Of a DNA stretch of 64,000 nt, positions 1,524-48,777 are shown one piece after another. The DNA comes from Lingula anatina (taxonomy: Eukaryota; Animalia; Brachiopoda), in contig CM120645.1 in NCBI GenBank assembly GCA_051362555.1, positions 20,212,001 through 20,276,000 of the forward strand. Reading direction: 5' to 3'. Every line of letters starts with the position of its first letter. Position 1 is the stretch's first letter. The translations under genes and the position numbers were made by a program. Under the pieces are notes generated by a model. That model was not told the origin of the DNA. It did not search any database and was given only the letters and a program-made list of their open reading frames with translations.

Positions 1524-3867
1524 GCATGTATAAATGTTTATTTATTCTTTCCAGGGGAAGTAATAATAGGCTCAATTGGTTTACCCGGGATGTGAGAAAT
1601 AACAAAAGGTAACAGTTATTTTTGCAAAAGAATTATTTTTTATAATAAAATGGTTATCATTATTCTGTCGAAACGAGAAAAATAATTAACCCTGTCACAT
1701 CCAGAATCATCTGTTTGCATAGAAATACACTGGAGGGGGCACATGTTTTTCGAGGAAAACGCATCTAATTAAAAATAGCCCACAAAAGTAATTTTACTGT
1801 GAAATATAGGACCAGAGATGGAAATGCGCTTGGTTTTGTCTCATTATGCTTGTTTAATTGCATTTTTCCCAGGGAGAAGGGGTAACCTCAAAGCCAAGGA
1901 GTGTGTGTGTGCGGGAGGGGGGGGGGGAAGGGGCGTTGAACATGGCCTGCTGTATCCGCCATTGTTAAAGTGTCAGAGAAGATATGCAGAATAAACAAAA
2001 TAGATTTTAATCTATTAAAATCTATTTTGTTTATTTTGCATATTTCACACTTAAAAGTGCTTGAGAGATCAAGCTTATGGTCTATGAAAGAATAAAGATG
2101 AAAATCATAATTTAATAAATAGTAAATAAACAGTTTTATTTTGTCTATAATCTTTTCAGGTTGTTCGATTCCCAAAATAACAACCGCGGTGGATACAATG
2201 TGGGAGACCCTATGTACTACTACGAGGGATCTACACTTAGCATAGAGTGGTACGTTGTTTTTTTTCTTAACCTCACTAACAGATGAAGGGACACGGACAT
2301 CCGCCGTTTTTTCTTTTACTAGCATATTTTCTTTGGATAATTACGGCATTTTTTCTTTCGTCCGTTGTTCACAGGCCTATGTTGTGTTTTATCCATTGTT
2401 CACGACGCTATTTTTCTATCCGTTTTCATGAAGTTACTTATTTCTATTGTCCGTTCATCGGGCCAGAAGCTTAATAAAGATAATATTTTATTGTTTTGAT
2501 ATATACCGATGATATATACCATAGAGATATTTTTCATTCCATCTGTTGATGAAAAGATCAAAGTTGAGAGCACTTCACTTAAATTCTAATAAACTTCTGA
2601 AGTATTTGGTGTTTTTATGATTAAAAGTCAATTTTACTTCAAACATCGATGACATTTATACTTAAGTTTAAACCAAAAGCACGTATGCAATTTTGATTTC
2701 AACTAAATTAATTGATCCTTATACAAGTCATTGGATGTAGCAAATAATGTGTTGTATTTAACAAAGTTTCATCATTCTTAGTAGTAGAAGCAGTTTGAGT
2801 ATCATTATTTTAATTATCAACAACGAAATTGTCTCACTTATTCTTCTTTCTATCATACTCAGGGCTAACCAGCACAGCTGCGCGGACCAGAACGCTAACT
2901 GCGAGCTTATATTGCAGTACATGTGTGATGACAAGATCAGAGACGGGGCAACGTCTTTTTCAATTGTTGACAACCAGGACCTAAATCCTGGTTTTGGAAT
3001 GCATGAGGAATGGAACCACTATTTGTACTGTCGCACTAGGCAAAGAAACAAAGGGCTTTTCTTAGCGGATCAGGTAGCATGTATAACGGAGGCTCATATT
3101 GCAGTTGTATTCTTTTTATTCTTCCGTAAATACAAGTCATGATCTCCATTAGTTTAACAGTGAAAACGTTGATGTCTATACCCTTTACTGTAATCCTGTA
3201 ATAATAAACAAATATAGTACTTAGGCTTCGTTCGTTATTGTTTTACCTTTCGTTGCGTTACAATCTAAGTATACTCATTAACTTGTTATACAGTTTTTCT
3301 AATAAGGGCTTTCGCTTACACGCTTTCGCTTACACACTTAAGTTATAAGACTTACTTCTAGATTTGGACATTATTATTACTTTTGCATTTTAAATTATTA
3401 GCCTTTAACTATTGTTATATAATAAAAAAGATAGAATAAATTACCTTGACTTAAGAAATATCTGTTAAATGTGAAGCGCTCTTTTGCATGAAACCACATG
3501 GTTTCGGACATCTTATAACAAAAAAAATAGTACCGGAAGAACAAAAATGACTGCGTTTTAACAATGTAAAAAATATATATATGTTTAACTGCAAAAATGT
3601 AAATAATGAAAACCAAAAGACAATAATAATTTAAAGAAACACAATCACAAAGTGTAAAACATAAGTAAAGTAAGCTATCTTCGTGCAGAACTTATTTCCC
3701 GCGTAGTAAAATAAACGCAAACAAAAAAATGCATACTTCCGTCGCAATCTTGTGAGAGCATCTATCGCAATCACTAACTAACATTACTGGCTGCAGTTAC
3801 ACACCCCCCCAAAATCTATCTAAGATTTTTAACAACATTAAGAGTGCATTAAATTAAATATAATACC

Positions 3868-3898
<31 letters not shown>

Positions 3899-6800
3899 TT
3901 CCAATGTAAAACTGGATTCAAAGATCAAGGAGTAAATGATAAACACAAAATAAACACTATTTGCTATCAATACATTAACCGCTGCATGTAAAGGTTATAT
4001 GTTCTACCTTAATTTCCTTTATAACTTGTTGCTTAAGGTAAATCCACATGTCACCTTAATATAGTACACTGACATACTTTCTTACACCCATAACTCACCG
4101 TTCACACCCTAGACCTATTGTGAAACTAGCTTTGTCTATTTTCCAAGTCACCGTGAAGACTGAGAACTAAAAATGAAATTACATTTTTTAAAGGACTCAT
4201 GATCTAAGTTACCAACTTAAACAGTGGGAATGAATCCAAAAAATCTATATCCTACCTTAAACAATAAAACTCACAACATCAACATTCAAACTTAACTACC
4301 AGTTTTAAACAGTTAGTCATTGAGCAACTCACTCACTTACAGTCCTAATTACATTCAGAGAGTACTAACAACTTTCAATCAAAAGCACTAACTTCTGAAT
4401 TGGTCTTTCTAAAATAACTGGCTTGGTTTCGCGTTTTCCCAGTGAATTTAAGTCATCAGTTCCTACACAAATCTTGGCCTTGCGCACTAATTTATCCTTG
4501 CTGGGAATACATTCAACCACTCTGCCTAGTGACCAACTGTTTCGCGCTACATTAGGTTCCACAACAAGAACAATATCTCCCACTGTGATATTTCTCTTAC
4601 ATCTTGTCCAGCACTGTCTCTTGTTAAGATTCTGAAGATACTCTTTCCTCCATCTGCTCCAGAACTGTTGTGTGAGAAACTGAACTCTTCTCCATCTTTT
4701 CCTGAGATACATGTCCTGAGAAACAAAATTTCCTGGGGGTGGTAGTGGCACACTGGATTTCATTGTAAGAATGTGATTAGGTGTCAGGGGCTCTGCACAC
4801 TCAGGATCATTGATATTGGCTATTGATAGAGGACGGCTGTTTACGATTGCCATTGCTTCATAAAACAGTGTGCGTAAAGATGAATCATCCAATCTACCTG
4901 GGCAGAGATTAATCACTCCTGCTAATACATTCCTTATAGTACGAATCTGTCGCTCCCATACTCCACCAACATGACTAGAATGAGGTGCATTCATAAGAAA
5001 ATCACAATCTTGATTGGCTAGGTAACAAGCTACCTTCTGAGCATCCATTTCCTTTAATGCAGCTGTGAATTCATTCTTTGCACCTACAAAATTGCTCCCT
5101 TGATCTGATCTGATCTGGCGAACTTTTCCTCTAATAGAAATGAAACATCTAAGAGCATTTATAAACGCATCTGATGACATGTCGTCCAGCATTTCAACAT
5201 GCACTGCTCTAGAACATAAACAGGTAAATAACAGACCATAGCGTTTGAACTCCTTCCTATTCTGTTTCACAATGAAAGGACCAAAGCAATCCATGGCACT
5301 ATATTCAAATGGACATGATGCTTCCACACGATCAGAAGGCAAATCTGCCATTTTCTGCTCTTCCACTGGTTTTCTCATTTTCCTGCATGTAACACATCTG
5401 TGAATAATTTCAGATGTCAGCTTCCCTCCAGCAAGGATCCAAAATCCATTGGCTCTGACTTCATTTAGAGTCATACCACGGCCCATATGACCAATGCGTT
5501 TATGAAAATGAGATACAATCAATTTTGAAACATAGCTATCCTTGGATAATATTACTGGATGCTGAACAGAAAAGGCAAAACTTGATTGTCCTAGCCTTCC
5601 TCCCACACGAATTACTCCTTTATTGTCTTTAAAGGGGTTCAATGTTGAACTAGGAGGTTTTCCCTCGAACTTCTGTTCTTGAGCTAATTTTATCAAGAAT
5701 GTGGTCGTTTCTTGCCTTTCCTCTTCTGAAGTGAGACTTGCATTTTTGATACCTCTTGCTCTTCTTTTGAGCCTTGCAATTGCTCTGACTGCTCTAGACC
5801 AATCTGAAAATTTCTCGAGTCTTTCTATCATGGATTTCTTTTCTACTGTCTGTGTACTCCTTACAGAAGACATTTTGATCTCTGGGTCCATTTCTGGTAA
5901 CTGTACATCATTGTGGGGCATGTCAGCCATCTCTAAATCAGGATTCCAAAGAAATCTTGGTCCTGTAAACCAGGTGGAGTCTCTCAACTTCTCCACTGAC
6001 AAACCTCTTGATGCGTGATCTGCAGGGTTGTCTTCACTTCTTACATAGTGCCATTGCTGTGGGGAAGTTGCTTCTTTGATCAACTCTACTCTGTTGGCTA
6101 CATATATTTTAAATCTGCGTGTGTCATTGTTTATGTAACCTAGCACAATCCTTGAATCTGTCCAAAAATAATGACGGTACTTCTCTGTCATCTCAGATTC
6201 AAGAACTTTGCTCATTTTGAGAGAGACTACTGCAGCATTGAGCTCCAATCTTGGTAGGGTGATAACCTTCAATGGAGTTACTCTGGCCTTTGACATGACA
6301 AGAGAACAATGTACTTCGTTTTTCTCGTTCACAAGTCGTATATAAGAACATTGTCCATATCCAGATAAACTCGCATCAGAGAAATGATGAAGTTCTCTTC
6401 GCGTTACTGTTCCAAAGTTCTTTGGTATAAAACACCGGGCCACCTTGATAGTTTGAATATCCTTCAATTCTTCAGACCATTTTTCCCACTGTGGCATAAG
6501 ATCATTGGAAAGTTCTTCATCCCATGCAGAATTCTCTTTACACATTTGTTGCAATATCTGCTTCCCAATAAGAATAAATGGGGATAGAAAGCCTTGAGGA
6601 TCATACACGGATGCCACTGTAGATAGCACTCCCCTGCGTGTTTTTGCCTTGACTTCACTGGTAAAAGCTCTGTACTGAAAAACATCATCTTCTACATTCC
6701 ACTGTAATCCCAATGCAGTGGAAACTGGCAATCTGTCTTTATTCAAATCCACACCATTCACCTCTGTAGCACGCTCAGACTCTGGGACCGTTTCTAATAC

Positions 6801-9800
6801 CTCCCTGCTATTGGACAAGAACTTGTGCAATCGTATGCCTCCACTGGCACACAATTTCCTTGCCTGATCGATAATCTGAATGGCGGTATCTGCGTCATCA
6901 GAGCTGGTCAAACCATCATCAACATAGAAGTGATGCTTAATAAATTCTGCTGCCAATGGGTATTCATTCTCATAACTTTTAGCAAGATATTTCAAACCAA
7001 AATTGGCACAACCAGGCGATGAAGTAGCCCCAAAAAGATGTACTTTCATCCTGAATACCGTTGGCTCCTTGGTAATGTCACCATTTTTCCACCACAGAAA
7101 TCGCAGGTAATTTCTGTCGTTATCTTGCACTAGGAATTGATGAAACATTTTTTCAATATCACATGCTACTGCCACTGGGTGTTCTCTAAATCTAATCAAA
7201 ACTCCTAGAAGGCTACTTGTTAAGTCGGGACCACTTAGTAAATGTTGATTAAGTAAGTTTGTTTGTAAGTTGCAGAGCAATCAAATACCACACGAAGTTT
7301 TCCTTTCTGTGGATGATAAACTCCATGATGTGGCAAGTACCATACTTCTCCTTTAATGGTATCATCTGGAGCTTCTTCAGCCTCACCTCGGTCTATAATA
7401 CCTTGCACCATGCTCGTGTACGATTCACGATAACTTGGATCTCGCTCAAACTTGCGTCTCAGATGATCAAGGCGTTGGAGTGCCTGGGACTTGTTATCAG
7501 GGAGAGCTGGTCGTCTTCTGAATGGCAATGGCATCTGAATGTGACCATTATTCAACTGCTGTATATTGGTTTCTTGTACTCTCAAAAACTGCAAATCTTC
7601 TTGAGACATCTCAACTTCGGTCTTGTCGTGAACAAAATCCTTTTCTAAGGCATTAATAACGTCTCTTGGCATACAAGGAAACACCTCCTTTGTCGTCACA
7701 CGGTGACAAACTGAAGCTAAGTTATCTCTTGAAGAGCAACCAACAATACTCCACCCAAGTATAGTCTGCACTGCATATGGCTCGCTATTTCCACCAACTA
7801 GGGTCTCTCTAGGTAGCAATGCTTGTGGACAATTAAAACCAATGAGTAAACCCACATCACAAGTCTGTAGGGGAGGAATCTTGTTCAAAAGAGGCTTTAG
7901 ATGTTGCCAGTCTGATACAGTTTTTCTCGTAGGAATTTGTGTTCTGTCAGCTGGTATAAACTCCCTAGTGAATGCTTGATCAATCTCCAATGTCTCAGTA
8001 GACTTGAATCCTCTTACTCGCAATCTTCTGATTTTCTTGCTGTCTATGAGGGACTTTTGACTTGACATTGTTGATAAACTAAGTGTGGCATGCTCTGTTT
8101 CAGCATTTAAAGCAGCAGCCGTATCTTCTAATAAAAATGTAGTGTCACTCTGTGTATCTAAAAGTGCATAGGTCAACACCTCATGTTCTGGATTTTCCTG
8201 TGTAGACACCCAAACAGGCACTATCATGGTAGTGCTACTCTGACGGTGATGCTGATTGACTTTGAGAGAATTTACGCTTTGGGTTTCTCTGCTGGTAGGT
8301 GGCTGCCGTTCTTCGTGCATGCAGGTTGGATGCTTGCCCTTACAGGTACCACATACATGTTTTCTTCTGCAGTCACTGTTTCTGTGTCCCTGTCCTAAAC
8401 ATCCAAAGCACAAATTCTTTTTCACCACAAACTCCCTTTTCTTGGATATCGTTAAAGCGCCAAAGTCATGACATCTAGAGATATAATGACCTTCTTTCTC
8501 ACAATATGTGCACAATTTTTTCTCTGCTACACCAGCATTAACATTTAGAGCTCTGACCGTATCATGCACCTTGTTCACCAATGGAGAGGTAATGGGATTG
8601 CAAGCCACTTCTGATTCTTCTGACAGGAAAGCACAAAAGTCACGAAAGGAGGGGTAGCCTTCAGTCTTCATAGACCTTGTCACTTGACGATTCCATCTGT
8701 GTGATACAAACTGTGGTAGCTTGTTAACCATTTTCCTGTTTTCACTATAATCGTTCAAAACTGTGAGTCCCTTGACGTGCGGCATGGCATCACATACAGC
8801 ATTCAGAAAGTCTGAGTAGTCTCTGAGTGCATTTCCATCTTTTTCTGGAATCTTTGGCCATTTATCTAGCTTTTCTCTGAAAGACTTCTGTATCAGGAAC
8901 TCATCTCCAAACCTTTCGTTCAGCTTTCTCCAGGCATCATCAAATGCTGCTTCATCTGTTCTTAAGAAAGCTCCCTGAATCATTTTAGCAGCAGGCCCTG
9001 CTGTATACTTCCTAAGAAAAAAGAGTTTCTCAGTAGCATTGAGGGCTTTCCTTCCAATTAAGACAGAGAAGGAGTTCTTCCATTCAGGAAACAGCAATGG
9101 ATTACCTGCAAATACCTTTGGTTCTGGAACAGGTAGGCGTCCTAAAGACAAACTCTGTTGAAGAGCTTCTGTTAAACCATCGAGGGAAACTGCTGGCGTG
9201 TGATCAGTTGTGGCCATAGGCGTAGAGACTGCATGCATGTGTGCAGTTGTAGCTATGGGCACGGAAACATCAGGTGCAGACAGGGAAACTGAGGGTACAC
9301 GCACAGCTGCAGTCACAGGTAGGGAAGCAGCTGGAGTATAGACAGATGCAGTCGCAGGCACGGACATCACATGTGCATGAACAGCCGTAGTCGCTGACAC
9401 GGGAACCTCTGATGTATAAACAGCTGTAGTCGCTGACAGGGGAACCTCTGGTGGTAAGACAGTTGTAGTCACAGGCACAGAAACCTCGGGTGTATAAGCA
9501 GCTGTAGTCGCAGGCACGGACAACATATGTGCATGAATAGCTGTAGATGCTGACACGGGAACCTCTGATGTTGAAGCAACTGCAGTCACAGACACGGGAA
9601 CCTCTGATGATGAGACAGTTGCAGTCACAGGCACGGAAACCTCGGGCGTATAAACAGCTGTAGTCACAGGCAGGGAAACTGAGGGCACGCGCACAGCTGC
9701 AGTCACAGGCACGGGAACCTCAGGTGTTGTGGCAGCTGCAGACACAGGCACGGAAACCTCAGGCGTGTAAACAGCTGTAGTCACAGGCAGGGAAGCTGAG

Positions 9801-12800
9801 GGCATGTGTATCTTGTCAAACTCATTTAAAGCATCAATTTTAGCCTGAGATACACGTAAACTAGTCTGCATTTCTAAATCCTCCTCTTTAAATTTCAATT
9901 CTAACCTTGCTCGCTCCAATTCCTGCTTGACTTTCATGGCTGATGCACGAATGCTCAACTCGGCTTGTTTCTGTGCTTCCTCCAATTTCAAAAGACTTGA
10001 CGTTGAGGAGCCACGAGAACTGGTTCTTGATCTGGTACTGACTGATTTAGAGTCTTCAGTGTGCTCAGTAACTGATGATAAATTCTGCTCCATAATTCTC
10101 TTGAATTCCAATAATATTTTTCTGCGAGGCTCATCAATAACTGCTGAGTCAGAATGGCTTTGTAATTTCAACAAATTATCTTCAATTTCAAAATATTGGT
10201 CACAATTCTGCAACCATTCTGCATATTCTTCTCTGAGTAATGTCTTGCTGCCACCTTCTTTAATTATGGCATTGCACCGTTCCATAATTTTTGACAGTTC
10301 TCCAAAGAGTCGCTTACATCTTTTACCTTGTATCTCAACAGAATATTCCTTTCCCTTTTCTGTCATCGTTACAGTTCTTTTCTTCGTTAGGGAATTGGTT
10401 GACTCGTTTTCACTATAACGGAGGCTCATATTGCAGTTGTATTCTTTTTATTCTTCCGTAAATACAAGTCATGATCTCCATTAGTTTAACAGTGAAAACG
10501 TTGATGTCTATACCCTTTACTGTAATCCTGTAATAATAAACAAATATAGTACTTAGGCTTCGTTCGTTATTGTTTTACCTTTCGTTGCGTTACAATCTAA
10601 GTATACTCATTAACTTGTTATACAGTTTTTCTAATAAGGGCTTTCGCTTACACGCTTTCGCTTACACACTTAAGTTATAAGACTTACTTCTAGATTTGGA
10701 CATTATTATTACTTTTGCATTTTAAATTATTAGCCTTTAACTATTGTTATATAATAAAAAAGATAGAATAAATTACCTTGACTTAAGAAATATCTGTTAA
10801 ATGTGAAGCGCTCTTTTGCATGAAACCACATGGTTTCGGACATCTTATAACAAAAAAAATAGTACCGGAAGAACAAAAATGACTGCGTTTTAACAATGTA
10901 AAAAATATATATATGTTTAACTGCAAAAATGTAAATAATGAAAACCAAAAGACAATAATAATTTAAAGAAACACAATCACAAAGTGTAAAACATAAGTAA
11001 AGTAAGCTATCTTCGTGCAGAACTTATTTCCCGCGTAGTAAAATAAACGCAAACAAAAAAATGCATACTTCCGTCGCAATCTTGTGAGAGCATCTATCGC
11101 AATCACTAACTAACATTACTGGCTGCAGTTACAGCATGCGCTTGTATTTATCCTGGATGCAGTAACGCGCGTTTTTTTTTCTTTTCATTAAAAATAATTT
11201 TGCCATCATGTGAGGCAAGAATATGTTCCTTCTCTCATTTTCTTGCATACCCCGTCTACCGATACATTATTCAATATCGCTTTCGCGTGCAAAACTTTCA
11301 CCCTTTGTATTTTTTTCTTGCATGTCGCACGAATGCAAAGCATCACGATTTTTTTTGACATAATTTAATGTGCTTCATAAAATTTCGCATAAGAATATTT
11401 TAACTATCAATAGATACGTACGTTAATGCTTTAATTGCTTCGTCAGCTTAAGTACCGAAAGTCTTGGTCCCAAAAAATGTATGTGTCGTCTGAAAAACGT
11501 TCACGAAATATTGACATGAACTCATGCGCATGCAATGTTGAAGTACATGCTGCAGTGGATATTCAAGGAATAATACAGCTCACACCAGACGTGGTTATGA
11601 ATTTTAAACATCCAAAGTAATGTAAGATTCTTTTTTTTTTACTAAAGAATCTTAGGTTCAACGATGCTAGATTCACTCGACAGAATAATGGCGGCACCAA
11701 AAGCGGTTACGAATGCCCAGAAGAGAGAGACTACTATCCCTATTGGTACCATTCCCCTTGGAAGGTACGTATACATCGAGGTTATTTGCATATTGGGCTA
11801 AACTAGTTGTACTCGTGTTTAATTCAATATGTCCTAGCTTTGTTGTTCAAATAGAACCAAATTCGAGACCTTAAATCGCCTATACTGGTGACTCAGGTCC
11901 TTTATAATGTGGTTACTCTCCACCAGGGGTCTCTTCAGTCGTCTCTACAGCCATGTCAATATTAGACTGCATTCCTCTAACCCTATCGTACCAGCACGAT
12001 CGATTTAACACAAAGCGGATTATCGCTAATTTGCATTCAGTTTAAGCGGCTTATTTATCTACCACGCCTACTGAAGCTGCTGGCTGTAATTAACTTTCGT
12101 GCACGCTTAAATTGAATGCGATTTAGCGAAAATCCCCTCGGAACTAGATCGATCCTGCTACTACGATAGGGAATGGTCCCTTAGATGAACAACGCTCTCC
12201 ACCTTGAACACCTTGAATCCCATACGGGTCTTTTGTCCAGTTGCGTTACGAGAGAGAACCCCTGGCAGAGTGTAGGCAGTGATGCCCTCATTGCGACAAC
12301 GGCTGGATTTCAGTACCAGTTATCTTAGCTTTGTCTCGATTTTCATATTATTCCTTTTCCTTTTTGTTGGGAAAACAAGGGGTATCTCATAAGCTAAGGA
12401 GGGGAGGAACACCTGGTCCACTGCCTCCCCCCCCCCCCCCCGGGGCCGTCAATGTTCTCTTGTTTTAATATAATTATGATATTTAACTCTCCTTAAGGAC
12501 ATCGTCGTCATGACTAATAACGTTGAACGCTGCGACTATTACCAAAAAGAGAGCAACAACGTGAAGTCCAGGTGGGGGTGTGTCGTCGACAGAAACAAGC
12601 TGAATCGATTTTATCGCTGGCCTCTTTTTATCATTCCTGACAATAAAGAGGATTGTGAGGTAAGTGCCATTCATATGCCAGGAGGCAAAATTGAGGGAAG
12701 CTCAAGAAAGCTACTTATGAAATACATTTGAAACAAAACAATTTACAAGCCTATTTTATATTAATTTTCTTTCATGTTTGATCTACACTGTACAGTCATT

Positions 12801-13519
12801 TGCAATTTATTATCTTTCCTTGTATTTTAGAATTTCGAAATATTCAGACAGCCAGTAAGTGCAAATTGGACTGAATTTCCCGCTCACGACATTCCGCCGC
12901 CAAAGTGTATCAAGGCCCCCTGGTCACGTGACAACCACAACGGCAACGGGATTGGAGGAAATTTCAATACATACGATTGGGTAATTCCGGAGGGTATTGC
13001 TCATGAGAAATGCGTCTTACGGATGAGGTAATTAGCTTGTCCAATAATTAAAAATTACATGAAATAATCTACTCTACAAATATTATATCCGGCAAATAAA
13101 AGAGATTTAGCATATAGTACATCTACAGGTAGTTTCTACAAAACATCGACTAAAATGGTGCATTCCAGTATTTTTGTAGTCTAATTCTTTTTTAAAAAAA
13201 GCAGCTTTAAGCTGCTGTTTTGCAATTGAAGAAACTATTATTGTAACTGTGGCTCTTGCCACGTCGATCAGTATTACTCAATGAATGTGAAAACAGAATC
13301 TTTTATAACCGCAATTGTCATTTGTGTAATAGGTAATCAAATTCGCCTTGACTGAGAATTTGGAATATGCAATTGGAAGTCTGTTGATATGTTTTAGAAT
13401 TTTAAGTGTTATATATTATATATTATTTATTTGTGCATAGCGTTGATGCGTTTTTTTTTTCAGGACAATTTAAAGGAATTCTTAATAATAATAATAATAA
13501 TAATAAATATTATTATTAA

Positions 13520-13550
<31 letters not shown>

Positions 13551-15452
13551 TTTGCAGATACAACATTTCTACCAACGATTTCGACTCATGGAACACAGAC
13601 GCGTCTTCCAACACTGATAGCGACACAGACGGTTCCAAAATTGACCTTTCAAAGACCTTCAAACTTCCCAACAAGGAAACTGCTGAAGCACGCGGCTATG
13701 TCTTCAAGAATAACCCGGATGTTCAGATGTTTCCGGGCCTCGATGTGAAGCTTACATTGGCCATCAACACGGCTCAGTTTGGTCGCACTTTCCAGGACAG
13801 GTGGGCTTTCCACTAAAATAGTATTCTGAAAAAATCATGCTGCTGATATGACAAAGTATCACGAATGATGTGCTTGTATTCGTCTCTGTAACATTATAAA
13901 TGAACGTTACCATACAGTGCGTCACATATCAAATAATGAGGAAATAAAATTATCAGTAAATGGTACGTAAATTTACATGACTATCATTGGTGGCAGTAGA
14001 AAAAAAAACATACCAGTCAGCGTTCTCAATGAAAATAACCAGAAAATAACAAGCAAAGATAAAGTAAATGTAATTATTAATTAATGAATGGTGAATTTTT
14101 AATTTATTTGTTTTTTCGTAGGTCCCATGTGTTTGAAATTAGGCAGAGACCCGCCGATCTGAAAGATGCCACTATCCACAATTTGAACGTGAGGGGAAAA
14201 CGCGGGAACAACCAACAGGTGTACCCAGCAGTGGAGTACGACTTTGTCCCCAACACCTTGGAGATAAACACTAACGACTATGTACATGTTCAGTAAGTTG
14301 GCTGTATCTTTATATATCACAACATAACGTGTGGCTCACACGAGCTCAGTTGTTGCCAAGTAAAGGTAACAATTATTAAAAAAAAAAGCAATTGGACAGT
14401 TTAATTCGCAGTGCAACGTGATATATGCTCCAAGTTTTGTATAAGAAACTGACGATCTTGAGCATTCTTTACAGACATTATGATGATTATTTTCAAAACT
14501 CTCTCCGTTTGCCTCAACCGCACTTAAATTTACGTAAAAAATAGTACCTGGGTAGTCAAACAACATAGTTTAATTACTTCTAAACAATACTGATAATAAC
14601 ATGATAGTGTACTTACAATTTATGTGCTTTCCAGTCAGTTTTACACAAGACAGTATCATATTTTGTGGTTTTAGGATAGCTTATAATAAAATGAAAAATG
14701 AATAGGAAGTGGAATAGAAAAAAACCACGTCAGAACAAACAGATAAACCGATAAATGAATGATGACTACACAGATATTTTTTCTTACCAGATGGACAGGG
14801 TCGGATAGAAACCCCCACAACAACGCCGGAAATGGCCGAAGGGGAACTGACCGTAACAACATGGTCATGCTTAAGAACAAGGTGTACCCAGAAGGAACGA
14901 CCGGTCTGGCTTACGGTGGACTGGATGTCCTTGGCCAGTATGGAGCTAACTATCCCATGCACTTGGATAACGTGACCCGTCTGATCGGGGCATCGACAGA
15001 AACGAGAGCTGTCCTCCAGAAGATGGCGCTGTTGGCACCCCGTAAGTGCGCTGACTCAAAATAGGAATCGATTGAGCTGTTTCTATTTTAAATTAAACAT
15101 TGAATGCTGAAATAATTTCATGATAATTAAGAATTTAATAATATCTAAGATATAAAAACTTTAGGGTTTTTATACTTCAAACCGCTAGAGGTCCGAAACT
15201 GAAAAAAAAAAAAAATGCAAATTTCTTTGAGCAATGTATGATGAAAATAGATGAAAAAATTTTTTTTCATATATTTTAGCCCGATACAGTGGCAGCATGG
15301 TTCTGCTGGACAATGCCAAAGCCTACTATGACGTAGGTCCTCTTCAGTTCGCTAAGGAGGGCGTGTTCCACTACATGTGTACTAGAAACAACGCCTTCAC
15401 CAACAGAAGCCAGAAGGGGAGAATCATCGTTCGTGACGCTTCAAAAAAATAA
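271..15452 (+). CDS. DD3-3: DD3-3-like protein, paralog A (11 exons, 579 aa, signal peptide, no C-terminal TM); intron 4 interrupted by a BEL/Pao element
   Basis: Exons 271-341, 1555-1608, 2160-2249, 2863-3073, 11648-11764, 12498-12659, 12831-13027, 13558-13800, 14122-14292, 14791-15041, 15280-15452. All introns GT-AG; total 1740 nt in frame. Protein [30 protein letters not shown]...[14 protein letters not shown]...[14 protein letters not shown]...[10 protein letters not shown]...[16 protein letters not shown] matches motifs I recognise from the Dictyostelium DD3-3 family. Confidence 0.9.
1486..1520. repeat. (CA)n microsatellite
   Basis: Seen directly. Other simple repeats: (AG)n 31618-31670, 31755-31792, 42033-42070; (TG)n 33252-33284, 40969-41012, 55228-55256, 63777-63810; (AAT)n 23863-23903. 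Confidence 0.95.
3082..3801 (-). repeat. 3' LTR (720 bp), preceded on the element strand by a polypurine tract at 3804-3810
   Basis: Direct repeat of 10414-11133. The ORF track gives identical spurious ORFs at 3398-3616 and 10730-10948. The element strand reads ttttgggggggtg|TGTAAC. Confidence 0.95.
4365..7280 (-). CDS. pol: BEL/Pao pol: RT, RNase H, integrase (3' part of frameshifted polyprotein)
   Basis: [30 protein letters not shown] (RT); [22 protein letters not shown] (RNase H region); HHCC zinc finger plus DCFGP, SDQGSNF, WER (DDE integrase); C-terminal [17 protein letters not shown]. Confidence 0.93.
7235..10429 (-). CDS. gag: BEL/Pao gag-protease plus start of RT (5' part of frameshifted polyprotein)
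   Basis: Coiled-coil N-terminus and a capsid-like region. Three Cys/His knuckles (CTYC..H....C, CFGC....H....C, CGTC...H....H), aspartic protease [10 protein letters not shown] start [19 protein letters not shown]. Confidence 0.9.
9183..9805 (-). repeat. In-frame 39-bp (13-aa) tandem repeat in gag, about 16 degenerate units
   Basis: Protein repeats such as [13 protein letters not shown] and [13 protein letters not shown]; DNA motif ggaaacctc..gtcacaggcac recurs every 39 bp. Confidence 0.85.
10414..11133 (-). repeat. 5' LTR (720 bp, TGTAAC...GTTATA)
   Basis: Direct repeat of 3082-3801; I saw no differences by eye. AATAAA on the element strand at 10447-10452. Confidence 0.95.
11914..12274. 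mobile_element. Nested fold-back/MITE insertion in intron 5 of paralog A
   Basis: Inner imperfect inverted arms of ~70-90 bp spanning 11981-12171 (ccctatcgta..tcgctaa..gcattca.tttaagcg). Outer inverted pair at 11914-11936 and 12252-12274. The intron is ~400 bp longer than the same intron in B and C. Confidence 0.65.
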
Positions 15453-16484
15453 ATAAAATATTTGCTTGCATGAAAGTGCTTTCTTTCTTTTGATATGAAT
15501 TATAGATGGTAAATAAGGATGGTATTTTTGTTGATATTCTAAATTGTAATTTGATGGAAATATAAGAAAAAAGGGAAATATGGATTTGAAATACTACGAA
15601 CTCATTTCTTACTTGTTAGTCTCGCAGAAATTTAGAATATTGACATTCTGAATGGAGAGGTTGACTTGTAAAAAATAATTAAAAAACAAAAAAAGTAGTA
15701 TTTTATGAGAAATAAAATCGACTTTTTGTTTACCACAGAAAAGTTTGGCAAGATGTGTATTGAACAAAAGTTCAACAAGAACTATTCGCAATTTCCATTC
15801 GAAAGATTTGATTTGAATAAAGAAAAAAATCTCACTCGTTTTTGTTCCATTTTATTTAATACCAATACAGTACATACTACAGGAAGTTTGAAACAGACAC
15901 ACATTTCGCACACATTGTGAGCGGGTTGGAAAACATTACTATACTCCAAATATTATCTTTCATTTACAATTAAATAGCATATGAATGCCAAGAAACATGC
16001 AGGAAAATACGCAGAATACACATAAATACGTACAGTGGGTCAAGGCATCACGTCATGCAATATTTACTAGTTAAACTCTTTTCAGCTTTTCAACGTTGCC
16101 ATTGAAAAATATGTGATATCTTTTTCCATGACGATTTCTTCAATAAACCGTGCTCAAGTGGGTTTAGTGAGGGGGGAGGGGGGGGTGTTCGCCAACCCTA
16201 TTACACACCCCAACCCACCCCAACACACACTTCTACTTGCCGTGCATAGTCTTCAACAGATGTGCTTTATCGTACAATAGGGCACTACAACAGACCTGGT
16301 ATACGTCATCAAGAAAGTGGGCTATAATGTCACCGAAAATGTTGCCATGGTGATGGCTATACAACTGGTTTGACTCGCTCAGTTTAATGGATTTCATTTC
16401 TTCCGCTGTCACCTACATGTACCAAGTACGCTGATACATAAAGTTCTGTATGTGACGTTTTTATGCGAGATTTTTTCCGCACAA

Positions 16485-17290
16485 CAGTATATAACTACCA
16501 TACTACATGGTTCGAACGCTCATCGTTCTCTTTTTCTATCCTTCTCTATCTTCCATGGTGGATTGGTTAAGATAATACAAATTGCAATATATTATTTTAT
16601 CATATCTAAAACCTTTTCAAAATGTAAAATTAGAATACGTCAGCGAGACTACAACAGTAACTACCACACTACCCCTGTGGATGGCTTGGACGCTCATCGC
16701 TCTTATCCTCCATTACTCTCTAGCTTCCATGGTGGATTTGTTAAAACTCTCTTTTCAAAATGGTATTCTTATCAAAATACGTCAGCGAGACTACAACAGT
16801 AACTACCATGCTAGATGGTTTTGACGCTCATCGCTCTCTTTCTCCATCACTCTCTATCTTCCACGGTGGATTGGTTGAAACTCTCTTTTCAACATGTGAT
16901 TCTTTATTAAAATACGTCAGCGAGACTACAACAGTAACTACCATGCTAGATGGTTTGGACGTTCATCGCTCTCTTTCTCCATCCCTCTCTATCTTCCATG
17001 GTGGACTGATAAAATTATCTTTTCAAAATGTGATTTTTATTGGAATACGTCAGCGAGACTACAACAGTATCACCCATACTGGATGCCTTGGACGCTCATC
17101 GCTCTCTTTCTCCATCACTCTCTATTTTCCATGGTGGATTGGTTAAAACTCTCTTTTCAAAATGTGATTTTTATTAGAATACGTCAGCAAAACTACAACA
17201 GTAACTACCACACTAGATGGTTTGGACGATCATCGCTCTCCTTCTCCATTTCTCTGTATCTTTCATGGCGGATTGGTTAAAACTCTCTTG
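16485..17290. repeat. Minisatellite, ~134-bp unit, about 6 copies
   Basis: Motif aatacgtcagc(g/a)a starts at 16634, 16776, 16911, 17044, 17178, with a partial unit upstream; whole units are similar to each other. Confidence 0.93.
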
Positions 17291-20652: not shown

Positions 20653-22935
20653 ATGGGTTCTTCGGAGATATACATGAGATGTTACCTACGTGGTTTATTG
20701 CGTCACTGGAAGATGGTAACCGTGTTAACTCTGTACGTCGTGGCAAACTACTTTCTTTTTAGAACAGATACCACAGGTAACACATGTAGATTGACTTTAC
20801 TTCATATGTTTAAGAGTAATTGATGCAATATTTGGCCATTGTATATGCCTCCGTTTTGTCAGCAATCCGTTAGGGAGATTCCGATTGTGTGTACGCAGAT
20901 ACGTATGTAGAAGGGTATATGGCGGAACCTTGTATGCACTGTGTTAGATCAAGAAGTTATCTCTTTATAACTTCTTGGTTAGGTTGGCAGATACCTGCTT
21001 TTGTCAGTAGTCCATATTACTCTATGTGGTCTATCAGTCTTAATCTACAAAACGAGTTTTAAAATTCTTCTCTCGCTGGATTCTCTGGTGTCTTGAAAAC
21101 AGTGTATTTACAATTACAATCTAAAGTGATCATGATTTTATTTTACATGGTATGCTATATGAAGAAAATAGACGACGTAAACAAAAACTATCTGCTAACG
21201 TTATCGTAACATAAGCAATGATAAATTACATGTTCCAACATCTGACGCGAGTACACGTTATACGGGTAGGTTAATAGAACAGCAGAACACGGAGGCGGCC
21301 CATAATTGTGTTATCAAACATTTACATCCCATTTCCATAGATTTTTAGATCGATCTATCCCTGTGGGGAGTCTCACTAGATTACTGTCAGCTTGGCCGGC
21401 TTAAGCGTCTGTCCCGCCTACTAAAAGCTGTAAGGTGGTAATTAACTATGGTGTCCGCTCCGCTGACTGCAATTTAGCCTGAACCCCCAGGGAGTTAGGT
21501 CGATCTAAATCTCTGGGAAAGCACCCTTTGAGTCATTACTGTCCATCTATTCTTGCACAATTGTGAATTGCTTTGTTCCAGAGAAAGATTTCATGCGGTC
21601 TGTTTCCGGCGTGTTTGTTACTGCAGCTATAAGCCGAGGAAACGCGTCGGGAATGAACGGCGCCGCCTATGCCACTGTGGCCGGTGAAGTAAGTTAACCG
21701 AGATATATTTTACTTTTTCATTTGAGGTGTCTAATCTGCCATGCATGCAGTTTGGTTAGCGAAGGAAATCTTATAGCTTAATTATCTCACCACGTGCGCG
21801 CCAGACAAGGAATTTCATCCTTTCTTTTGTCCCGCCAACATGTAGTCGCTTCTCAATTTATAAAATCAATATTTTATATGTACTTATATGTGTACATGTA
21901 TTAATTCACATATTAAAGATCAGTCAATTTTTGTTTTTCCTCTCAGTTATTGCACTTGTTTCTCTTTTACTTCAGTTGGCCATGAGTAATGTACCAACGC
22001 AATGGAGAGAAAAAATCAAATTCAGACGCCAACATGTTAAAGACGTTTGTCGGAAGTTTAATCTTTCTTACAGCCTTGATGGCAGAGACCCCAACTTTAT
22101 GAACCGCATTGCTGGCTCGTTGGGTAACTTACTGGTGGTAGAAAAATCAAAGTTTGCATTTTGCTACGTCCCGAAAATCGCCAATACGAACTGGAAGCGC
22201 ACGTTGCTTGCGCTGGCGGGTGCACTTAGTGCGAATGACATCAGGAGAGTACAAGCAAAGGACGTCCATTATGATCTGGCAGCGAAATACATAAAGCCAT
22301 TGAATCAATATTCAGTGGCCGACAGAAAACATATTTTGGAAAATTACAAAACAGCTATGTTTTTTAGAAATCCTCTTGAGCGTTTGCTCTCGGTGTACAG
22401 GAACAAGATTGAAAACAAGCCGTATGAACACCCCGAAATATTGTCACTCGTGGGTAACTATGTCATGTCGCGCTTTTTGGGTTTAAAACCTGGATTTCCG
22501 ATAAGGATAGAACGCCAGAAAGAAAAAATACTAGGCCAGATGCCATCGGGGGAAACATTTGAGGCCGACCTGAAAAATATTCCAGATTTATTTCCAAATA
22601 TAGACATACGATTTGATGAATTTTTGCGTTATATTATTGAACATCCCAGCAAGATAAATTCCCATTGGGCGCCTCCCTATACCGCGTGCTTTCCTTGTCA
22701 AATAGATTATGACTTCATTGGGAGCTTTGACACTTTGGCTGAGGACGCAGAGAATATATTAAGAATTTTGAATGCCGATCCAGGGCTGAAATTCCCGCAA
22801 GAAGCTGAAGGAAAGCTAAGGACCGTCTCTTTAATGCAGGACTACTATCATAACATATCGAAGTCTACATTAGCTCAGCTGCAGCAGCAGTATCGCATAG
22901 ATATTGAAATGTCGAATTTTACCGATATCCAGTAA
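20653..22935 (+). CDS. Golgi carbohydrate sulfotransferase, Sulfotransfer_2 / CHST11-CHST14-like (3 coding exons, ~396 aa, type II membrane)
   Basis: Exons 20653-20776 (hydrophobic anchor MVTVLTLYVVANYFLF), 21582-21688, 21976-22935 join in frame. 5'-PSB motif CYVPKIANTNWK, 3'-PB motif FRNPLERLLSVYRNK, HW.P...C.PC..DYDFIG..TL.EDA. The catalytic exon is certain; the first two exons are predicted. Confidence 0.88.
21325..21526 (-). mobile_element. ~200-bp MITE family, copy 1 (sulfotransferase intron 1)
   Basis: Imperfect TIRs (ccatt.cca.agattt.agatcgatc); reverse complement of 50097-50311. Confidence 0.8.
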
Positions 22936-23905: not shown

Positions 23906-24767
23906 GTAAATGATGTATTGTACCGTTTCTAACGAGGTCAGCTCTTCACTTGCGCCTGAGGTCACAGCCTGCGCCGGAGATGCTCTTGCGGTAATTCTTC
24001 CCCTGCGCCGTCGAATGCTATTTAATGCCTGCACAGCAGCCCTATGAAGTCGTGTCTGAATACGTGCGATTCGGGCCACACCCGATTCAACCTCATCCAT
24101 ACTAAATTATTCCTTTAACAATATCAATACTTGAGACTCTACACGAAGGTCGTGTACCAAAGCTACAGTTATTGTAACTAATTACGTTACAGCAACTGCG
24201 GCAGTGCATGACGTCATTGGTTCTTATGACGTCACAACGTTAGCGTTATAGCGGAGTAAACGTGCAACAATGAGGCGCTTCATTGTTGATGCAGATTTCA
24301 GGTTTTCAGTGTCAAGATTTATGTACAGTATGCACAGTGTATACTATGTATAGAGTTAATTGATATTTAATGTTATGAAACAGAAAATCGCCAGCTGGTT
24401 TGGTAGCTATGTTTATTGTAACAAAAACTTTCTATACCGATAGAATCAAGCGTATTTCTTGTTCAACTTTTGGATGAGGCATACCCACACAGGTAATTCC
24501 ATATCACTGCAATCTTTTTCTTACATGTCGCTTTAGCAGAATCTTTAGCAGAATCTTACTTTCTTCTTTTTTATGATTTTCGACCTCAATTTAAGTTCTA
24601 TATCACAAATTTCTCTCAGACTAAGAAACTACTTAAAAGTTCGACGTATGTCAAAAACGCATTTTACTTTTTCAAAGCGTCAGATATAAATGTAGAGATT
24701 ATATATATTGCTGCCCTCAATTCATATCGAAAGAAAGGAAGCACTCTCATTCAAACAAAGTGGTGAC

Positions 24768-27700
24768 CTATTTTGAAGAAGCGTCACGAACAATGATTCT
24801 CCCCTTCTGGCTTCTGTTGGTGAAGGCGTTGTTTCTGGTACACATATAGTGGAACACGCCCTCCTTACCAAACTGAAGAGGACCTACGTCATAGTAAGCT
24901 TTGGCATTGTCCAGCAGAACCATGCTGCCACTGTATCGGGCTAAAATATATGGAAAAAAAACAAACCTTTTATAATTAGCGTACTTTTTGCGGTGAACCC
25001 AATGTTTACAAATATATGTGCTTTCAAAATGCTCACGCTCTCCAATTAAAAATGAACTATAACCCTTGATCCTTGAACGACCAATTTTGCTTACCAAAAA
25101 GAGGAATCGATTTGTGTGCAAATATCATACATTGATAACATTTTCTAACTTTTTAAATAGTTTCCCGCCTATAGGGTTAGAGATTGAACCCAAACTGACA
25201 ATCTACACGCATGACAATAATTTACAATTTGCGCCTTAATTATCAACTGGCACCTCATTAACATTTCAATTACACGGGTTCTTACAACGCTATTGTTCGA
25301 ACCCGTGACTGAATACTTATTATAAGTCAGTGCACTTACGGGGTGCCAACAGCGCCATCTTCTGGAGGACAGCTCTCGTTTCTGTCGATGCTCCGATCAG
25401 ACGGGTCACGTTATCCAAGTGCATGGGATAGTTAGCTCCATACTGGCCAAGGACATCCAGTCCACCGTACGCCAGACCGGGCGTTCCTTCTGGGTAGACC
25501 TTGTTCTTAAGCACGACCATGTTGTTACGGTCAGTGCCCCTTCGTCCATTCCCGGCGTTGTTGCGTGGATTTCTGTCCGATCCTGTCCATCTGGTAGGAA
25601 CAAGAAATTATTTATCTACCTATTTCTCAATTCATTCACTTAATGATAGCAATAACCGTAATTTTTGCTTTTAAGTCTGTATTTGATCTTTTAAACTACC
25701 CATTTTGCATTTTATCACGAACTATACCCTTAACAGCCAGAAAAAAACATAGAAAAATGAATTTTCCCGTTGTAAAACCGACTGAAAAGCTACAAGGTGC
25801 AACATCATGTCATCATCAGTTCTGTTGGTAATAAACTGTTTGTTTCGGTGGTATAAGTTTTCCGTTAATGTCAATGTTCGAAGAAATTATACAAAAGAAT
25901 GATCACAATGGCTATAAAAATGTTCAATAGGAACAGGAATATATCTATTATTTTGCGAGTTATGTTCCACCGCCACTTAAACTATCCAAATGTTTTTTTC
26001 ACAAATACTTATTTTAATTGGCAAAAATTAATTGACATCGTGTGAGCCAAATATAGTTTTGCGGTGTACAGAACTACAGCCAACTTACTGAATATGTACG
26101 TAGTCGTTTGTGTTGATCTCCAAGGTGTTGGGGACAAAGTCGTACTCCACTGCTGGGTACACCTGTTGGTTGTTCCCGCGTTTTCCCCTCACGTTCAAAT
26201 TGTGGATGGTGGCGCCTTGCAGCTCGGTAGGTCTCTGCCTAATTTCAAACACATGGGACCTGCATAATAAAAAAAAACATTGTCCATTCAACAGATGTAC
26301 CGTTTGTATCTCTGTATTAACTTATTAAGAACAGCAATTCATAGGATGCACTGTCCACAGAGGGTACATTAAGAGAGTGGTGGATCATGAATAATACAGG
26401 AAAAATTGCCCTTATTTGTGATGAGGAGCAGCATGATTTCTTCAGAATATTATTTTGATTGAAGCCTACCTGTCCTGGAAAGTACGTCCAAACTGGGCTG
26501 TGTTGATGGCCAATGTAAGCTTCACATCGAGGCCCGGAAACACCCGAACATCCGGGTTATTCTTGAAGACATAGCCGCGTGCTTCAGCAGTTTCCTTGTT
26601 GGGAAAATTGAAGGTCCTTGAAAGGTCAATTTTGGAACCGTCTGTGTCGCTATCAGTGTTGAAAGACGCGTCTGTGTTCCATGAGTCGTAATCATTAGTG
26701 GAGATATTATATCTGAAAAGTTAGTTATAAGAATGTAAATAGCATACCGAGTAGTAGCCAAGGTATGAGTTGTCAATCACTCTACTAGAGCAGCTAAAGA
26801 ATACTGAGCGGTGAGAAAAGAGTCAGATTACAATGATATTTTTTTTCATTTGCGAAACAAAAGCTTAAATCGGAGTCCCCGTGTTAAGGGAATGAAAGTA
26901 CACAAATATTGGAATGCAATTTGTTCTGATTTTAGCTGTATTAAAATTGTTTTGTAGGAACTACTGGTACTGTAGTTGCTAGTGCATTCCCTTTATTTTC
27001 TGGATACCATATTGATAAAATCAATTATTTTATGCCACTCTCTATTGTTTCAAGAACCAATTACCTCATCCGTAAGACGCATTTCTCATGAGCAATACCC
27101 TCTGGAATTACCCAATCGTATGTATTGAAATTTCCTCCGATCCCGTTGCCGTTGTGGTTGTCACGTGACCAGGGAGCCTTGATACACTTTGGCGGTGGAA
27201 GACCATGTGCAGGAAACTCAGTCCACTGTGCACCTACCGCTCTTCCGCGTATTTTGAAATTCTAAAATGCCAAGAAAGAAAAATGAATTGCATACCTGTA
27301 TGTCGTGTATCAAAAATACAGTAAAAAAAGTCTCGTAAAAATCGTATCTTATTTGAAATGTGCACATCACATGCAACGTGCTTCATTCCTCCCCCCCCCC
27401 CCCCTTCACCTAATATCATTGACACTTACCTCACAATCCTCTCTGTTGTCCGGTATGACAATATTCCTGCGATAAAATCTATTCAGCTGGTTTCTGTCGA
27501 TGACACACGACCATCTTGACTTAACGTTGTTGCTCTCTGCTTGGTAATAGTTGCAGCGTTCAACGTCATTGGTCATGACGACGATGTCCTAAAGGAGAGT
27601 TAACTACATATGTATTAAAAGACGAGATCGATGGTGAACTCGGAAAGAGGCACCGAAGAACACGTGCACTCCTGGGTTCGGAAATACACCGCCTCCCTCA

Positions 27701-30700
27701 ACAAAAAGTATAACAAGAAAAACGCTGCAAAGCCAAAATAAATAGTATTTGAATTCAGGCATTGATGCTCCAAGGGATACCACTACTTACCACAATATCA
27801 GATCGGCCCCTACATGATTCAACGATTAGGTCTCAAATCCGTTTCCCGTTTGAAAACAACTAAACACATTAAGTTCAACGCTGAACCTTAGTCTCATATG
27901 GAAATGAGAGAAATCTATACTTACCTTCCAAGGGGAGTGGTGCCAATAGGGATAGTAGTCTCTCTCTTCTGGACATTCGTAACCACGTTTGGTGCCGCCA
28001 GCGTTCTGTCTTGTGTATCTAGCATCGTTGCGGCCAAGGTTCTTCAGAAAAAATACATAAATTTAAAATTGATTACATTTGGTGTTAAATACCCATAATC
28101 ATGTTGGGTGCAGTTCGTATTCCGTCTTGTATAAAGTTACCATGTGTGTGTCTGAGCTAGGACCCAACAGCAAGCTTCGGTAGTAACCTGTATTTCAGAT
28201 ATACTGTAGATACATGCATATTTATTGACTTTTGATTCAGATAATATTGGGTGAATTAAACAAATTAAGCACAATAATCCTAGTTCAGTAAAACACTGCG
28301 AAACAGACGCGTCTCTCAGTACACCCTTTTCCCCCCAATTCTCCCTTCTTCAAAACTTTATAATGAGTAAAACGAGACAAAAACAAAACAAGTAATTTCT
28401 CATCCCTGTTTCCCACGTATAGGCCCTACCCTACATCCCACTGTAAAATGTTTTCGTTTAATTCGCTCGGCATAATTTCGTTGTGCATCTCCCTCCCAAA
28501 ATTCTGGATCCGCGAATGTCTCATGATGGCCTTCTTCCTTTAAGTTTTCCAGACGACATTTCCATTTTTCAGGACAAGGATTTTCAGTGCCCATGCCAGT
28601 GACCAATTAAAGCAAAAACGTTTCAGGGGTATAATCGTGGAAAGAGCTGCATAATATTTCATAAACGGCAATAAAAAATTATCTTAAAAACAAAAAAAAA
28701 AAAAAAAAATTATCCAGGGATGTTCCCGAATCTATGCAGTATGAAACTGCACAAGAAATCGTTAAAAAGGGTGACTTGTGTGCGTGTATGAGAGAGAGAG
28801 AGAGATTGAATACTCTACAGATTTACAAAAATATTCAAGAAATCAAATGAAGAAACATATTCTAGCATCACATGTCGTTATTCACAATGAAAAGGACAAA
28901 CGTGCGCAACTGCATCAGCGATAAAAAGAAGCACGTGCCTACCTGATCCGCCAAGAAAAGACCTTGGTTCCTTTGCCTAGTACGACAGTACAGATAGTGT
29001 TTCCATTCCTCGTGCATCCCAAAAGCTGTATTGCTGTCCTGGTTGTCCCGAATCGTCCCTGTCGTTCTTCCGTCTCTGATTTTGTCATCGCACATGTACT
29101 GCAATATAAGCTCGCAGTTTGAGTTCTGGTCCGCGCAGCTATGCTGGTTCGCCCTGTGTAATGTAATTTCAATTAACACAAATAGGAATAAGAATGAGAA
29201 AGATGACAACGGCGACACTGATAATAATATTCAAACTCTTTCTACATGCCGTACCACCAATAATGATAATACATGTTATTGCGGCAATTCTTCATCCATG
29301 ATGTGATGATAATAAAGTTTATCAGAGGCAAGTGAGGTTAGATGAACACATTACATAACTTCCAGCTAAAACGTATTATAAAAAATGAAATACATTTATT
29401 TACTGACATTAGTTAAATTGGCATCTGATAAAAAAGCTGTAAAATATTTTAGAGGTTAGAAACAGCCGTTACTGAGTGCCTTCGACCTTGACCTTATATC
29501 AGCAGATGGAAGGAAAAAATGTTCATGAACAAAAAACAAAAAACAAAAAACAAAAACTATGTTTTTCATCGGTATATTAAAATAATAAAAGTAAGCCCTT
29601 TTGCGCCAATAGGACAGTTAACAGATAAAATAAAAAACCTATGTACAACGGATGGAATTAAAATAAGCCCTTTGTACAATGACAAAAATAGGGAGGAGAA
29701 AAGAGAAAAGGCCAAAAGAAGAACGAATTAAATACAAAAAAAGCTCTGTCAATGATTGTTTTAACAATTTAAAAGAATAAAGCCCCACAAAAAACAGATG
29801 AAATACAAAAAGTCCTTTAGAGAAATGATGAAAAAAAATCAGATTAAGAAAAAGGATTACCAAATAAAGCCCCGTAAACGACGTATTGAAAAAAATCATT
29901 TGCGTGACCTTTAATTTATAAGTTAGGGATAATAAAACAACGTACCATTCTATGCTGAGTGTAGATCCCTCGTAGTAGTACATAGGCTCTCCCACATTGT
30001 ATCCACCGCGGTTGTTATTTTGGGAATCGAACAACCTGAAATATTTGACAAATGCAATTTACTATTAATTATACCTAAAATTGTTATTGTAGGATGAACC
30101 ATATGCTGAGCTCTAAAAAATTAAATTACTGGATTAGCAAAACTAGATAAATAAGGCTATTTTTATCCCTTTTTGCTGTATATTGTGGTGAAATTGTCCC
30201 GTCTTCTACTTTTCACTACTTTGTTCAAGCTCAGTAAAACATATTTTTATGCACACACATTTAACTATACCCCCGTATCTGCTAGTTAACACCCACGCAA
30301 CATGACATGGTTAAGTAGACTGTTTCTAAATTTGCCAATCTGAACATAAAAAAAAAAAAATACAATTTTACCAAAAAAAGTTGACCATTACCTCTTGTTA
30401 TTTCTCACTTCCCGACCATTACCATTCAGTCTGTTATTACTTCCTCTGAAAAGAATCAAAAATATATGTAATTATATAAATGTCTGTGTGTGATTGTGTG
30501 TATGAATATATATACACACATGGTTGTGTTACATGTATGTGCATTATTGTGTGTATCTATGCGTGTTTAAATTTTCTGTGCATGTATCTCCGTGTATATG
30601 AAAAATTTGTTTGTGTGGGCGTAAAATATATGTGCATGCGTGGATGTACTTGTTTATGTGTGGTTGTGGACGTGAGTATATATCTAGATACTAGTAGGCC

Positions 30701-33340: not shown

Positions 33341-34058
33341 TGAAAACGTGTTAATGCAAAGCTCAACATCGCGTTAACTGGCCAGCATTGTGGATCAAGC
33401 AAAACAGTTTAACGAGTAAATATAGCATATCGTGATGTGTAGACGTACTGCTCACATGAGTATGTATTCTAGTAACGGTTACTTTGCCTTAATATTCTAT
33501 TGTGTTCTAAATGAAAAAGTTAACATTTGGAGTATTGTTATGTCAGACGTCCTTTTCACAATGACTAATTGTTTCAAATTTGCTGCAGTATACATGTATA
33601 TGCACAGTATATACTATGTATAAATTGTATTGGTATTTGATTCTAATGAAACGGAAAATCGTGGGCTGGTTTTTGCAGTTCTGTTTATTATAACTAGAAC
33701 TTACTTTACCGATGGAAATCAAGCCTATTTCTTGTTCCACATTTGAATCAGGAATGCCCGCACCGGTTAATTTATATCATTGCAAACTTTTCTTGGCATT
33801 ACCAAACCACACTAGCAGAATATTACCTTCCGTTCTTGTAATAATTTTCGATAAGGCTGTCAAGTCATAGTTTCCATATTCCAAAATTTCTGACAGACTA
33901 AGATATTACTTATGAGCCAGTCGGACTTCAAAACCGCATTTAATTTATTTCAAAGAGTGTTTTTAAATATTCTGAAATATCTACGTGGATCATTGCTGTC
34001 CTTAATTCATATCAAAAGAAAGAAAGCACTCTAGATCTCATGCAAGCGAAGTTGTGAC

Positions 34059-48732: not shown

Positions 48733-48777
<45 letters not shown>

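Follow-up and report, generated by a model that had tools for sequence, protein, structure and literature searches.

A young BEL/Pao retrotransposon of Lingula anatina that probably primes reverse transcription with RNA from its own LTR

The window, which is the whole 64-kb stretch of Lingula anatina DNA analysed here, contains a full-length LTR retrotransposon (Table 1). Its translated frames match the Pfam entries DUF1759 (4.8e-10), Peptidase_A17 (5.5e-46), DUF5641 (9.6e-25), rve and RVT_1, which identifies it as BEL/Pao, and the domain order (Gag, PR, RT, RH, IN) is of the Pao type. Acidic motifs that we take to be those of RNase H are present, and no Pfam match to a chromodomain was found in the element. 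It is a young BEL/Pao retrotransposon, filed under BEL/Pao by its proteins, and is flanked on both sides by the 5-bp duplication GCATG.

Table 1. Features of the BEL/Pao element and its predicted priming region (window coordinates)
Feature	Position	Strand	Basis or remark
Full-length BEL/Pao LTR retrotransposon, 8,052 bp	3082..11133	-	LTR pair and target-site duplication; Pfam domains
5′ LTR, 720 bp, begins TG, ends TA instead of CA	10414..11133	-	
3′ LTR, 720 bp, 100% identical to 5′ LTR	3082..3801	-	
Target-site duplication, left copy	3077..3081	+	Paralogous empty sites
Target-site duplication, right copy	11134..11138	+	
Polyadenylation signal AATAAA	10447..10452	-	3′ LTR copy at 3115-3120
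Polypurine tract (G run) preceding 3′ LTR	3802..3810	-	
ORF1: Gag (three zinc knuckles), protease, RT start	7235..10447	-	
ORF2: RT, RNase H, integrase; frame differs from ORF1 in this copy	4365..7280	-	
39-bp tandem repeat in gag, Pro/Thr/Ser/Val/Ala-rich	9264..9809	-	
Primer-binding site (PBS) position, 9 nt directly after LTR, without TGG	10405..10413	-	
Predicted 11-nt self-primer (putative primer role)	10492..10502	-	10500-10492 pair with PBS; 10502-10501 unpaired
Initiator-like TCA; its A (10502) is 11 nt before predicted primer 3′ end	10502..10504	-	Candidate start site, from sequence
Predicted inner R-U5 stem (10482-10476 with 10423-10417), adjoins primer duplex	10417..10482	-	Minimum-energy fold only
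Splice-acceptor-like site, pyrimidine tract and CAG, first exon base 10527	10527..10547	-	Motif only
Donor-like sites in the LTR	10578, 10687, 10776	-	Motif only

Near 7235-7280 the reading frame changes, so that the coding region falls into two parts. These are 99.4% and 99.6% identical to a database protein that carries the label Lingula anatina, and the next protein relatives are fish and mollusc elements at ~50-59% identity. The database protein P0003 (>99% identical) is continuous where the window copy changes frame; either this copy is mutated or misassembled, or the gene model was corrected. The long gag insert produced by the 39-bp repeat is absent from the aligned relatives. ORF1 is open from an ATG at 10429, inside U5, through the PBS, and its next ATG is at 10366.

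Two paralogous empty sites, near 38002 and 28939, hold the target site in single copy and so confirm the 5-bp duplication. The insertion point lies 8 nt past a splice donor, in an intron-like stretch of a plus-strand host gene copy. This multi-exon gene is present in at least four copies, one inverted (~2100-15500 on the plus strand, 24700-29200, 34000-38300, and 45800-50000 on the minus strand). Four of its exon frames gave no Pfam match, and its motifs recall what we take to be DD3-3-like proteins. Both LTRs end in TA (10414-10415 and 3082-3083) and not CA, yet the duplication is clean. Three reads of RNA run X4, at least 99% alike, exit the LTR at 10414 into a different flank; the TA end is therefore probably common to another insertion. 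Both known downstream flanks start with CA on the element strand. The window also holds a single-ORF sulfotransferase (21760-22935; Sulfotransfer_2, 3.6e-40) and a ~134-bp tandem repeat in six copies (16492-17289). No tRNA genes were found in the 64 kb.

According to the ICTV profile of the Belpaoviridae, these elements are primed by host tRNA at an 18-nt PBS complementary to tRNA-Arg or tRNA-Gly (PMC8742986), in line with an earlier note on this locus, which had described BEL/Pao elements as tRNA-primed; the profile describes the replication of BEL/Pao as poorly understood. The window's element resembles the profile in LTR length (0.2-1.2 kb), genome size (4-10 kb), Gag-PR-RT-RH-IN order, polypurine tract and metazoan host, but differs from it in that neither the element nor its relatives carry a PBS of 18 nt complementary to the 3′ end of a tRNA, and in the TA end of its LTR (PMC8742986). 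The earlier note was right that no tRNA-type TGG follows the LTR directly: the first TGG on the element strand lies 109 nt downstream of the LTR end.

PBS bases 10413-10405 are perfectly complementary to LTR positions 10500-10492, 78 nt upstream, and the coordinates and letters given for this complement in the earlier note are correct. Its length of 10 nt holds if the last A of the LTR is counted; the PBS side alone contributes 9 nt. In 20,000 dinucleotide shuffles, a 9-mer complement arose by chance in 0.31% (whole LTR) or 0.07% (last 150 nt), and a 10-mer in 0.07% or 0.02%, respectively. Only 2 of 1363 decoy positions within the element reach nine pairs. The 9-pair duplex has an energy of −9.9 kcal/mol, and the minimum-energy fold contains 12 consecutive pairs including a G-U, with a further 7-bp stem inside them. 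The AATAAA (10452-10447) sits 40 nt downstream of the paired segment, as had been estimated. The complement was also said to follow a TCA directly; the TCA is present (10504-10502), but one extra A precedes the paired segment at 10500. No TATA box was found ~30 nt before 10502.

Related elements were collected with a Gag alignment, which gave 18 loci in metagenome contigs, and a Pol alignment, which gave 10 loci in prokaryotic genome bins (28 in total). The latter ten BEL/Pao loci (L019-L028) come from prokaryotic GTDB bins and point to animal DNA in those bins. Scans of viral contigs gave no related loci, and the Gag alignment found no match in genome contigs. Ten of the 28 loci serve as family representatives, with a readable LTR end and upstream LTR present. 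Three near-duplicates (L007, L011, L014) are not counted as families, and 15 loci were left out: eleven without a readable LTR end (L004-L006, L010, L013, L015-L018, L026, L028), L019 (PBS without the matching LTR part), L027 (LTR without PBS), and L022 and L024, in which the LTR end could not be fixed. Gag identity to the window's element is 42-48% for six nearer families (L001, L002, L003, L008, L009, L012) and 26-36% for four farther ones (L020, L021, L023, L025). The LTR end is fixed by a second LTR only in the window's element, L003 and L023. A motif rule blind to the complement recovers the ends of L001, L002, L003, L008 and L009. Since the L012 end was found via the complement itself and those of L020, L021 and L025 were placed by eye, part of the count of positive families is circular.

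The earlier note had proposed a search for covariation between PBS and LTR. In nine of ten related families, 10 or more of the 11 bases pair with the family's own LTR-derived RNA, with different letters in each; all 11 PBS 11-mers differ, and each tracks its own LTR. Contiguous pairs counted from the LTR edge number 10 in L001, L002 and L012, 9 in L009, 8 in L003 and 3 in L008; for L001 and L002, none of 1351 decoys was as good. When PBS and LTR were reshuffled against each other, own-family contiguous pairing was matched by 4 of 5040 arrangements. With either the contiguous or the splice-junction form (described below) allowed, none of 200,000 permutations reached the own-family score. These statistics overstate certainty, since the families share ancestry and the complement was in sight when some of the ends were chosen. 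A C-to-T change in L014 leaves a G-U pair. The 10-nt PBS of L001 occurs twice, at 623 and 650, 27 nt apart. By these sequence comparisons the feature is genuine and its pairing conserved; since the PBS lies upstream of the ORF in L001, L002, L003 and L009, where the reading frame starts downstream of it, coding does not explain it.

The boundaries of the pairing are also shared. In eight of nine positive relatives it starts with the base that directly follows the LTR (L025 is offset by 1 nt), and an unbroken run never exceeds 11 in any family. At base 12, Watson-Crick pairing is absent from 9 of 10 families, the exception being L001, after a mismatch at 11. In all nine relatives the base after the complement is G or C, which cannot pair with the last A of the LTR. 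The extension of the pairing to 10-12 bp into the LTR end, seen by the earlier note as 12 nt with one G-U, is borne out by the minimum-energy fold but is therefore peculiar to the window's copy. A functional role for the TA end as wobble partner was discarded for lack of conservation. L008 departs from the pattern, with an intact ORF, only three paired bases (equalled by 1259 of 1351 decoys) and only 194 nt of LTR on its contig; its own LTR fragment has no match, and its PBS fits the L009 junction at 11 of 11 bases.

In seven of the nine positive families the best match spans a predicted GT-AG junction inside the LTR. The contiguous match of L003 ends where an AG follows a pyrimidine tract, and joining a GT donor 119 nt upstream lifts it from 8 to 11. 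Across the junction L003, L020 and L021 reach 11 of 11 (0 of 453 decoys each), compared with 9, 7 and 7 of 11 in contiguous form; L012 reaches 11 (0/151 decoys), L025 11 with its 1-nt offset (1/100) and L009 10 (1/453), and L023 reaches a weak 10 (9/151). L001 too attains 11 across a junction with a weak donor, which makes its form ambiguous. These junctions are predicted from motifs and were chosen after inspection of the data, and the acceptor filters were relaxed to include L012 and L023, with equal freedom allowed to the decoys. The four farther families were collected after the junction idea had arisen from L003, and served as its test. At the predicted LTR intron, L020 (60-459) and L027 (~13409-13797; a locus without its 5′ end) have the same donor-side and acceptor-side letters. 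In L024 (~145-160), an 11-nt match to a predicted LTR junction, found by eye, seems to straddle the likely LTR end instead of following it. In L021 a TGG-starting, tRNA-type primer site that may come from a nested element lies beside an assembly gap (~3115-3135), in the stretch from the end of the integrase to the polypurine tract. We take this site to be of the His type.

The LTR of the window's element lacks an AG at the acceptor position of L003, and no junction improves its match. A splice-made primer for this LTR was accordingly discarded: the best junction gives 8 of 11, equalled by 117 of 153 decoys. The L003 PBS shares its first 9 bases with that of the window's element and pairs over 10 nt with the window's LTR, which therefore reads like the spliced form of L003. 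In the midpoint-rooted Gag tree, built from a reference-free set of loci and with long branches for L024 and L025, the window's element groups with L001, L002 and L019 (83/83), nested among junction-type families, the node of intron loss itself not being starred. Since the window's element and its nearest relatives pair without splicing, the simplest reading suggests that their lineage lost an LTR intron. The older form of the system would have been an 11-nt primer built across an intron inside the LTR, and the intron could have been lost through splicing of the 3′ LTR copy ahead of reverse transcription. In LTR elements the 3′ LTR of the RNA is the template for the upstream part of R, so such a loss would be mechanistically easy in this lineage. 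It is possible, though we hold it only tentatively, that a wide aquatic BEL/Pao lineage primes with the first 11 bases of its RNA, spliced from a 3-9-nt exon and the next LTR exon. Replication would in that case be licensed by host splicing of the 5′ LTR copy, the 3′ copy staying unspliced, and the brachiopod element would be a processed, intronless descendant that carries its primer ready-made and has escaped this control.

What is observed directly is that the PBS pairs with the LTR, that this pairing abuts the LTR end, and that related families retain it while the letters themselves differ. The covariation lends support to the self-priming proposed in the earlier note, with a mechanism predicted from sequence: the window's element probably self-primes with its own LTR-derived RNA, as Tf1 does, and not with a tRNA. 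Transcription would start at the A at 10502, and the 5′ end would fold onto the PBS so as to close off ~78 nt as an R-U5 loop. The RNase H of the element would cut after base 11 (10492/10491), and RT would extend the new 3′ end into the U5 end. About two thirds of our confidence in self-priming falls on this start. It is indirectly supported by a pyrimidine-A step at −12/−11 in 7 of 10 families (background 0.137; binomial 8e-5, for families that are not independent). In the junction families a start at −11 implies an unusual first exon of only 3-9 nt. Against self-priming stand the failure of L008, with its intact ORF, and the nine pairs of this copy, which fall below the self-primer rule of at least 10 bp complementarity found in the accessible text of PMC6317226.

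Part of the same confidence goes to a minority version, rather less probable than a start at 10502, in which the chemistry is the same and transcription starts further up the LTR. The transcript might be spliced to the acceptor at 10527 from one of the donors (10776, 10687 or 10578), and the primer freed by RNase H would then be longer and capped, pairing through its last 9 bases. Acceptor-like and donor-like sites do exist in the window's LTR, and LTR introns are predicted in most relatives; splice motifs are, however, common in AT-rich LTRs. Eight of nine same-species RNA runs were compared (36 and 224 reads). At a depth of 0-4 per bin the reads are too few to settle start or splicing, and neither start pile-ups nor splice joints are listed among them. 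In run X3, eight reads cover 10439-10462 and four still cover 10485-10488, and hand arithmetic on the bin depths suggests that some, of unknown strand and possibly from one molecule, may reach ~10520-10540, upstream of 10502. The end of the pairing at 11 and the shared pyrimidine-A step fit base −11 as the 5′ end and weigh against an upstream start. The earlier note had held that a start far from 10500 would refute self-priming. This does not hold as put, because most relatives span a splice junction and the window's LTR has its own acceptor-like site.

The closest known systems are Tf1 and Tf2 (Schizosaccharomyces pombe), Tj1 (S. japonicus) and the Tf1/sushi group, for which the accessible parts of PMC4600332, PMC7175516 and PMC11042837 describe self-priming from a PBS directly after the LTR and complementary to the element's own LTR. 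The window's element has the same arrangement: its PBS abuts the LTR end and is complementary to RNA of its own LTR. Pairing in Tf1 involves the first 11 bases, and the RNase H cut falls between positions 11 and 12 (PMC7175516 and PMC4600332, in their accessible text); the 11-base length is a likeness, and the predicted R-U5 fold may be another. R-U5 stem structures appear in the predicted folds and differ from family to family (minimum-energy folds only). Differences from Tf1/sushi, which are Ty3/gypsy, are the BEL/Pao domains, the pairing of only 9 of 11 bases in this copy, and the complement formed across a predicted splice junction in most relatives. In Tf1 the cleavage and the start site are demonstrated, as far as the accessible text goes, whereas in the window's element they are predicted. 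The element is not a member of Tf1/sushi, as its domains are Pao-type and not the RT and integrase of a Ty3/gypsy chromovirus; it is likely that it works like Tf1 at the priming step without belonging to that group. For plant Tcn1 (gypsy) and TAR/Houba/Osr-1 (copia), self-priming was likewise predicted from PBS-LTR complementarity alone, also outside Ty3/gypsy (PMC6317226, accessible text). These plant elements belong to other superfamilies, and the 10 bp required of them are reached here only by counting the last base of the LTR. No report of BEL/Pao self-priming was found in the searchable literature, to which subscription papers and Repbase/GyDB entries do not belong. Term searches of the accessible text of three BEL/Pao surveys (PMC554778, PMC3118150, PMC6238403) found no discussion of PBS or tRNA, and the accessible parts of PMC3601003, PMC8220671, PMC6934838, PMC12440569 and PMC3286476 contain nothing on BEL priming. 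For Tf1-type elements, the literature search found no description of a complement formed across a splice junction.

Covariation demonstrates pairing and not priming, and the duplex could be a conserved RNA switch acting in packaging, dimer formation or translation control, or as a mark of spliced RNA, with another RNA priming in trans. The ORF1 ATG at 10429 lies inside the predicted fold, and 9 bp is short for a primer. We nevertheless consider such a switch unlikely, because pairing starts from the first post-LTR base in eight of nine positive families, exactly where the 3′ end of a primer must define the LTR end, and because no alternative primer site is visible. Priming by a host tRNA half or fragment appears more improbable still. 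The anticodon loop of tRNA-Glu(UUC), presumably U-UUC-A if the general rule for tRNAs applies, would be complementary to PBS bases 2-6. However, the 11 distinct PBS 11-mers track their own LTRs and one tRNA cannot fit all of them, and tRNA priming would leave the LTR match unexplained. Half-tRNA priming is nonetheless known in Copia lineages (PMC6317226, accessible text), and tRNA priming is the ICTV description of the family (PMC8742986). Chance complementarity in an AT-rich LTR, to which the mere 9 bp here and the unpaired L008 might point, is disfavoured to the point of being hardly credible by the shuffles, decoys, permutations and junction results.

If self-priming of the window's element is true, a mechanism proven only for Tf1 would extend to a third LTR superfamily, and the reason why tRNA-based annotation finds no primer site in such elements would be explained. 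The elements would also escape tRNA-fragment silencing directed at the PBS. The coexistence of spliced and intronless forms would offer a natural comparison for asking whether splicing can build a reverse-transcription primer.
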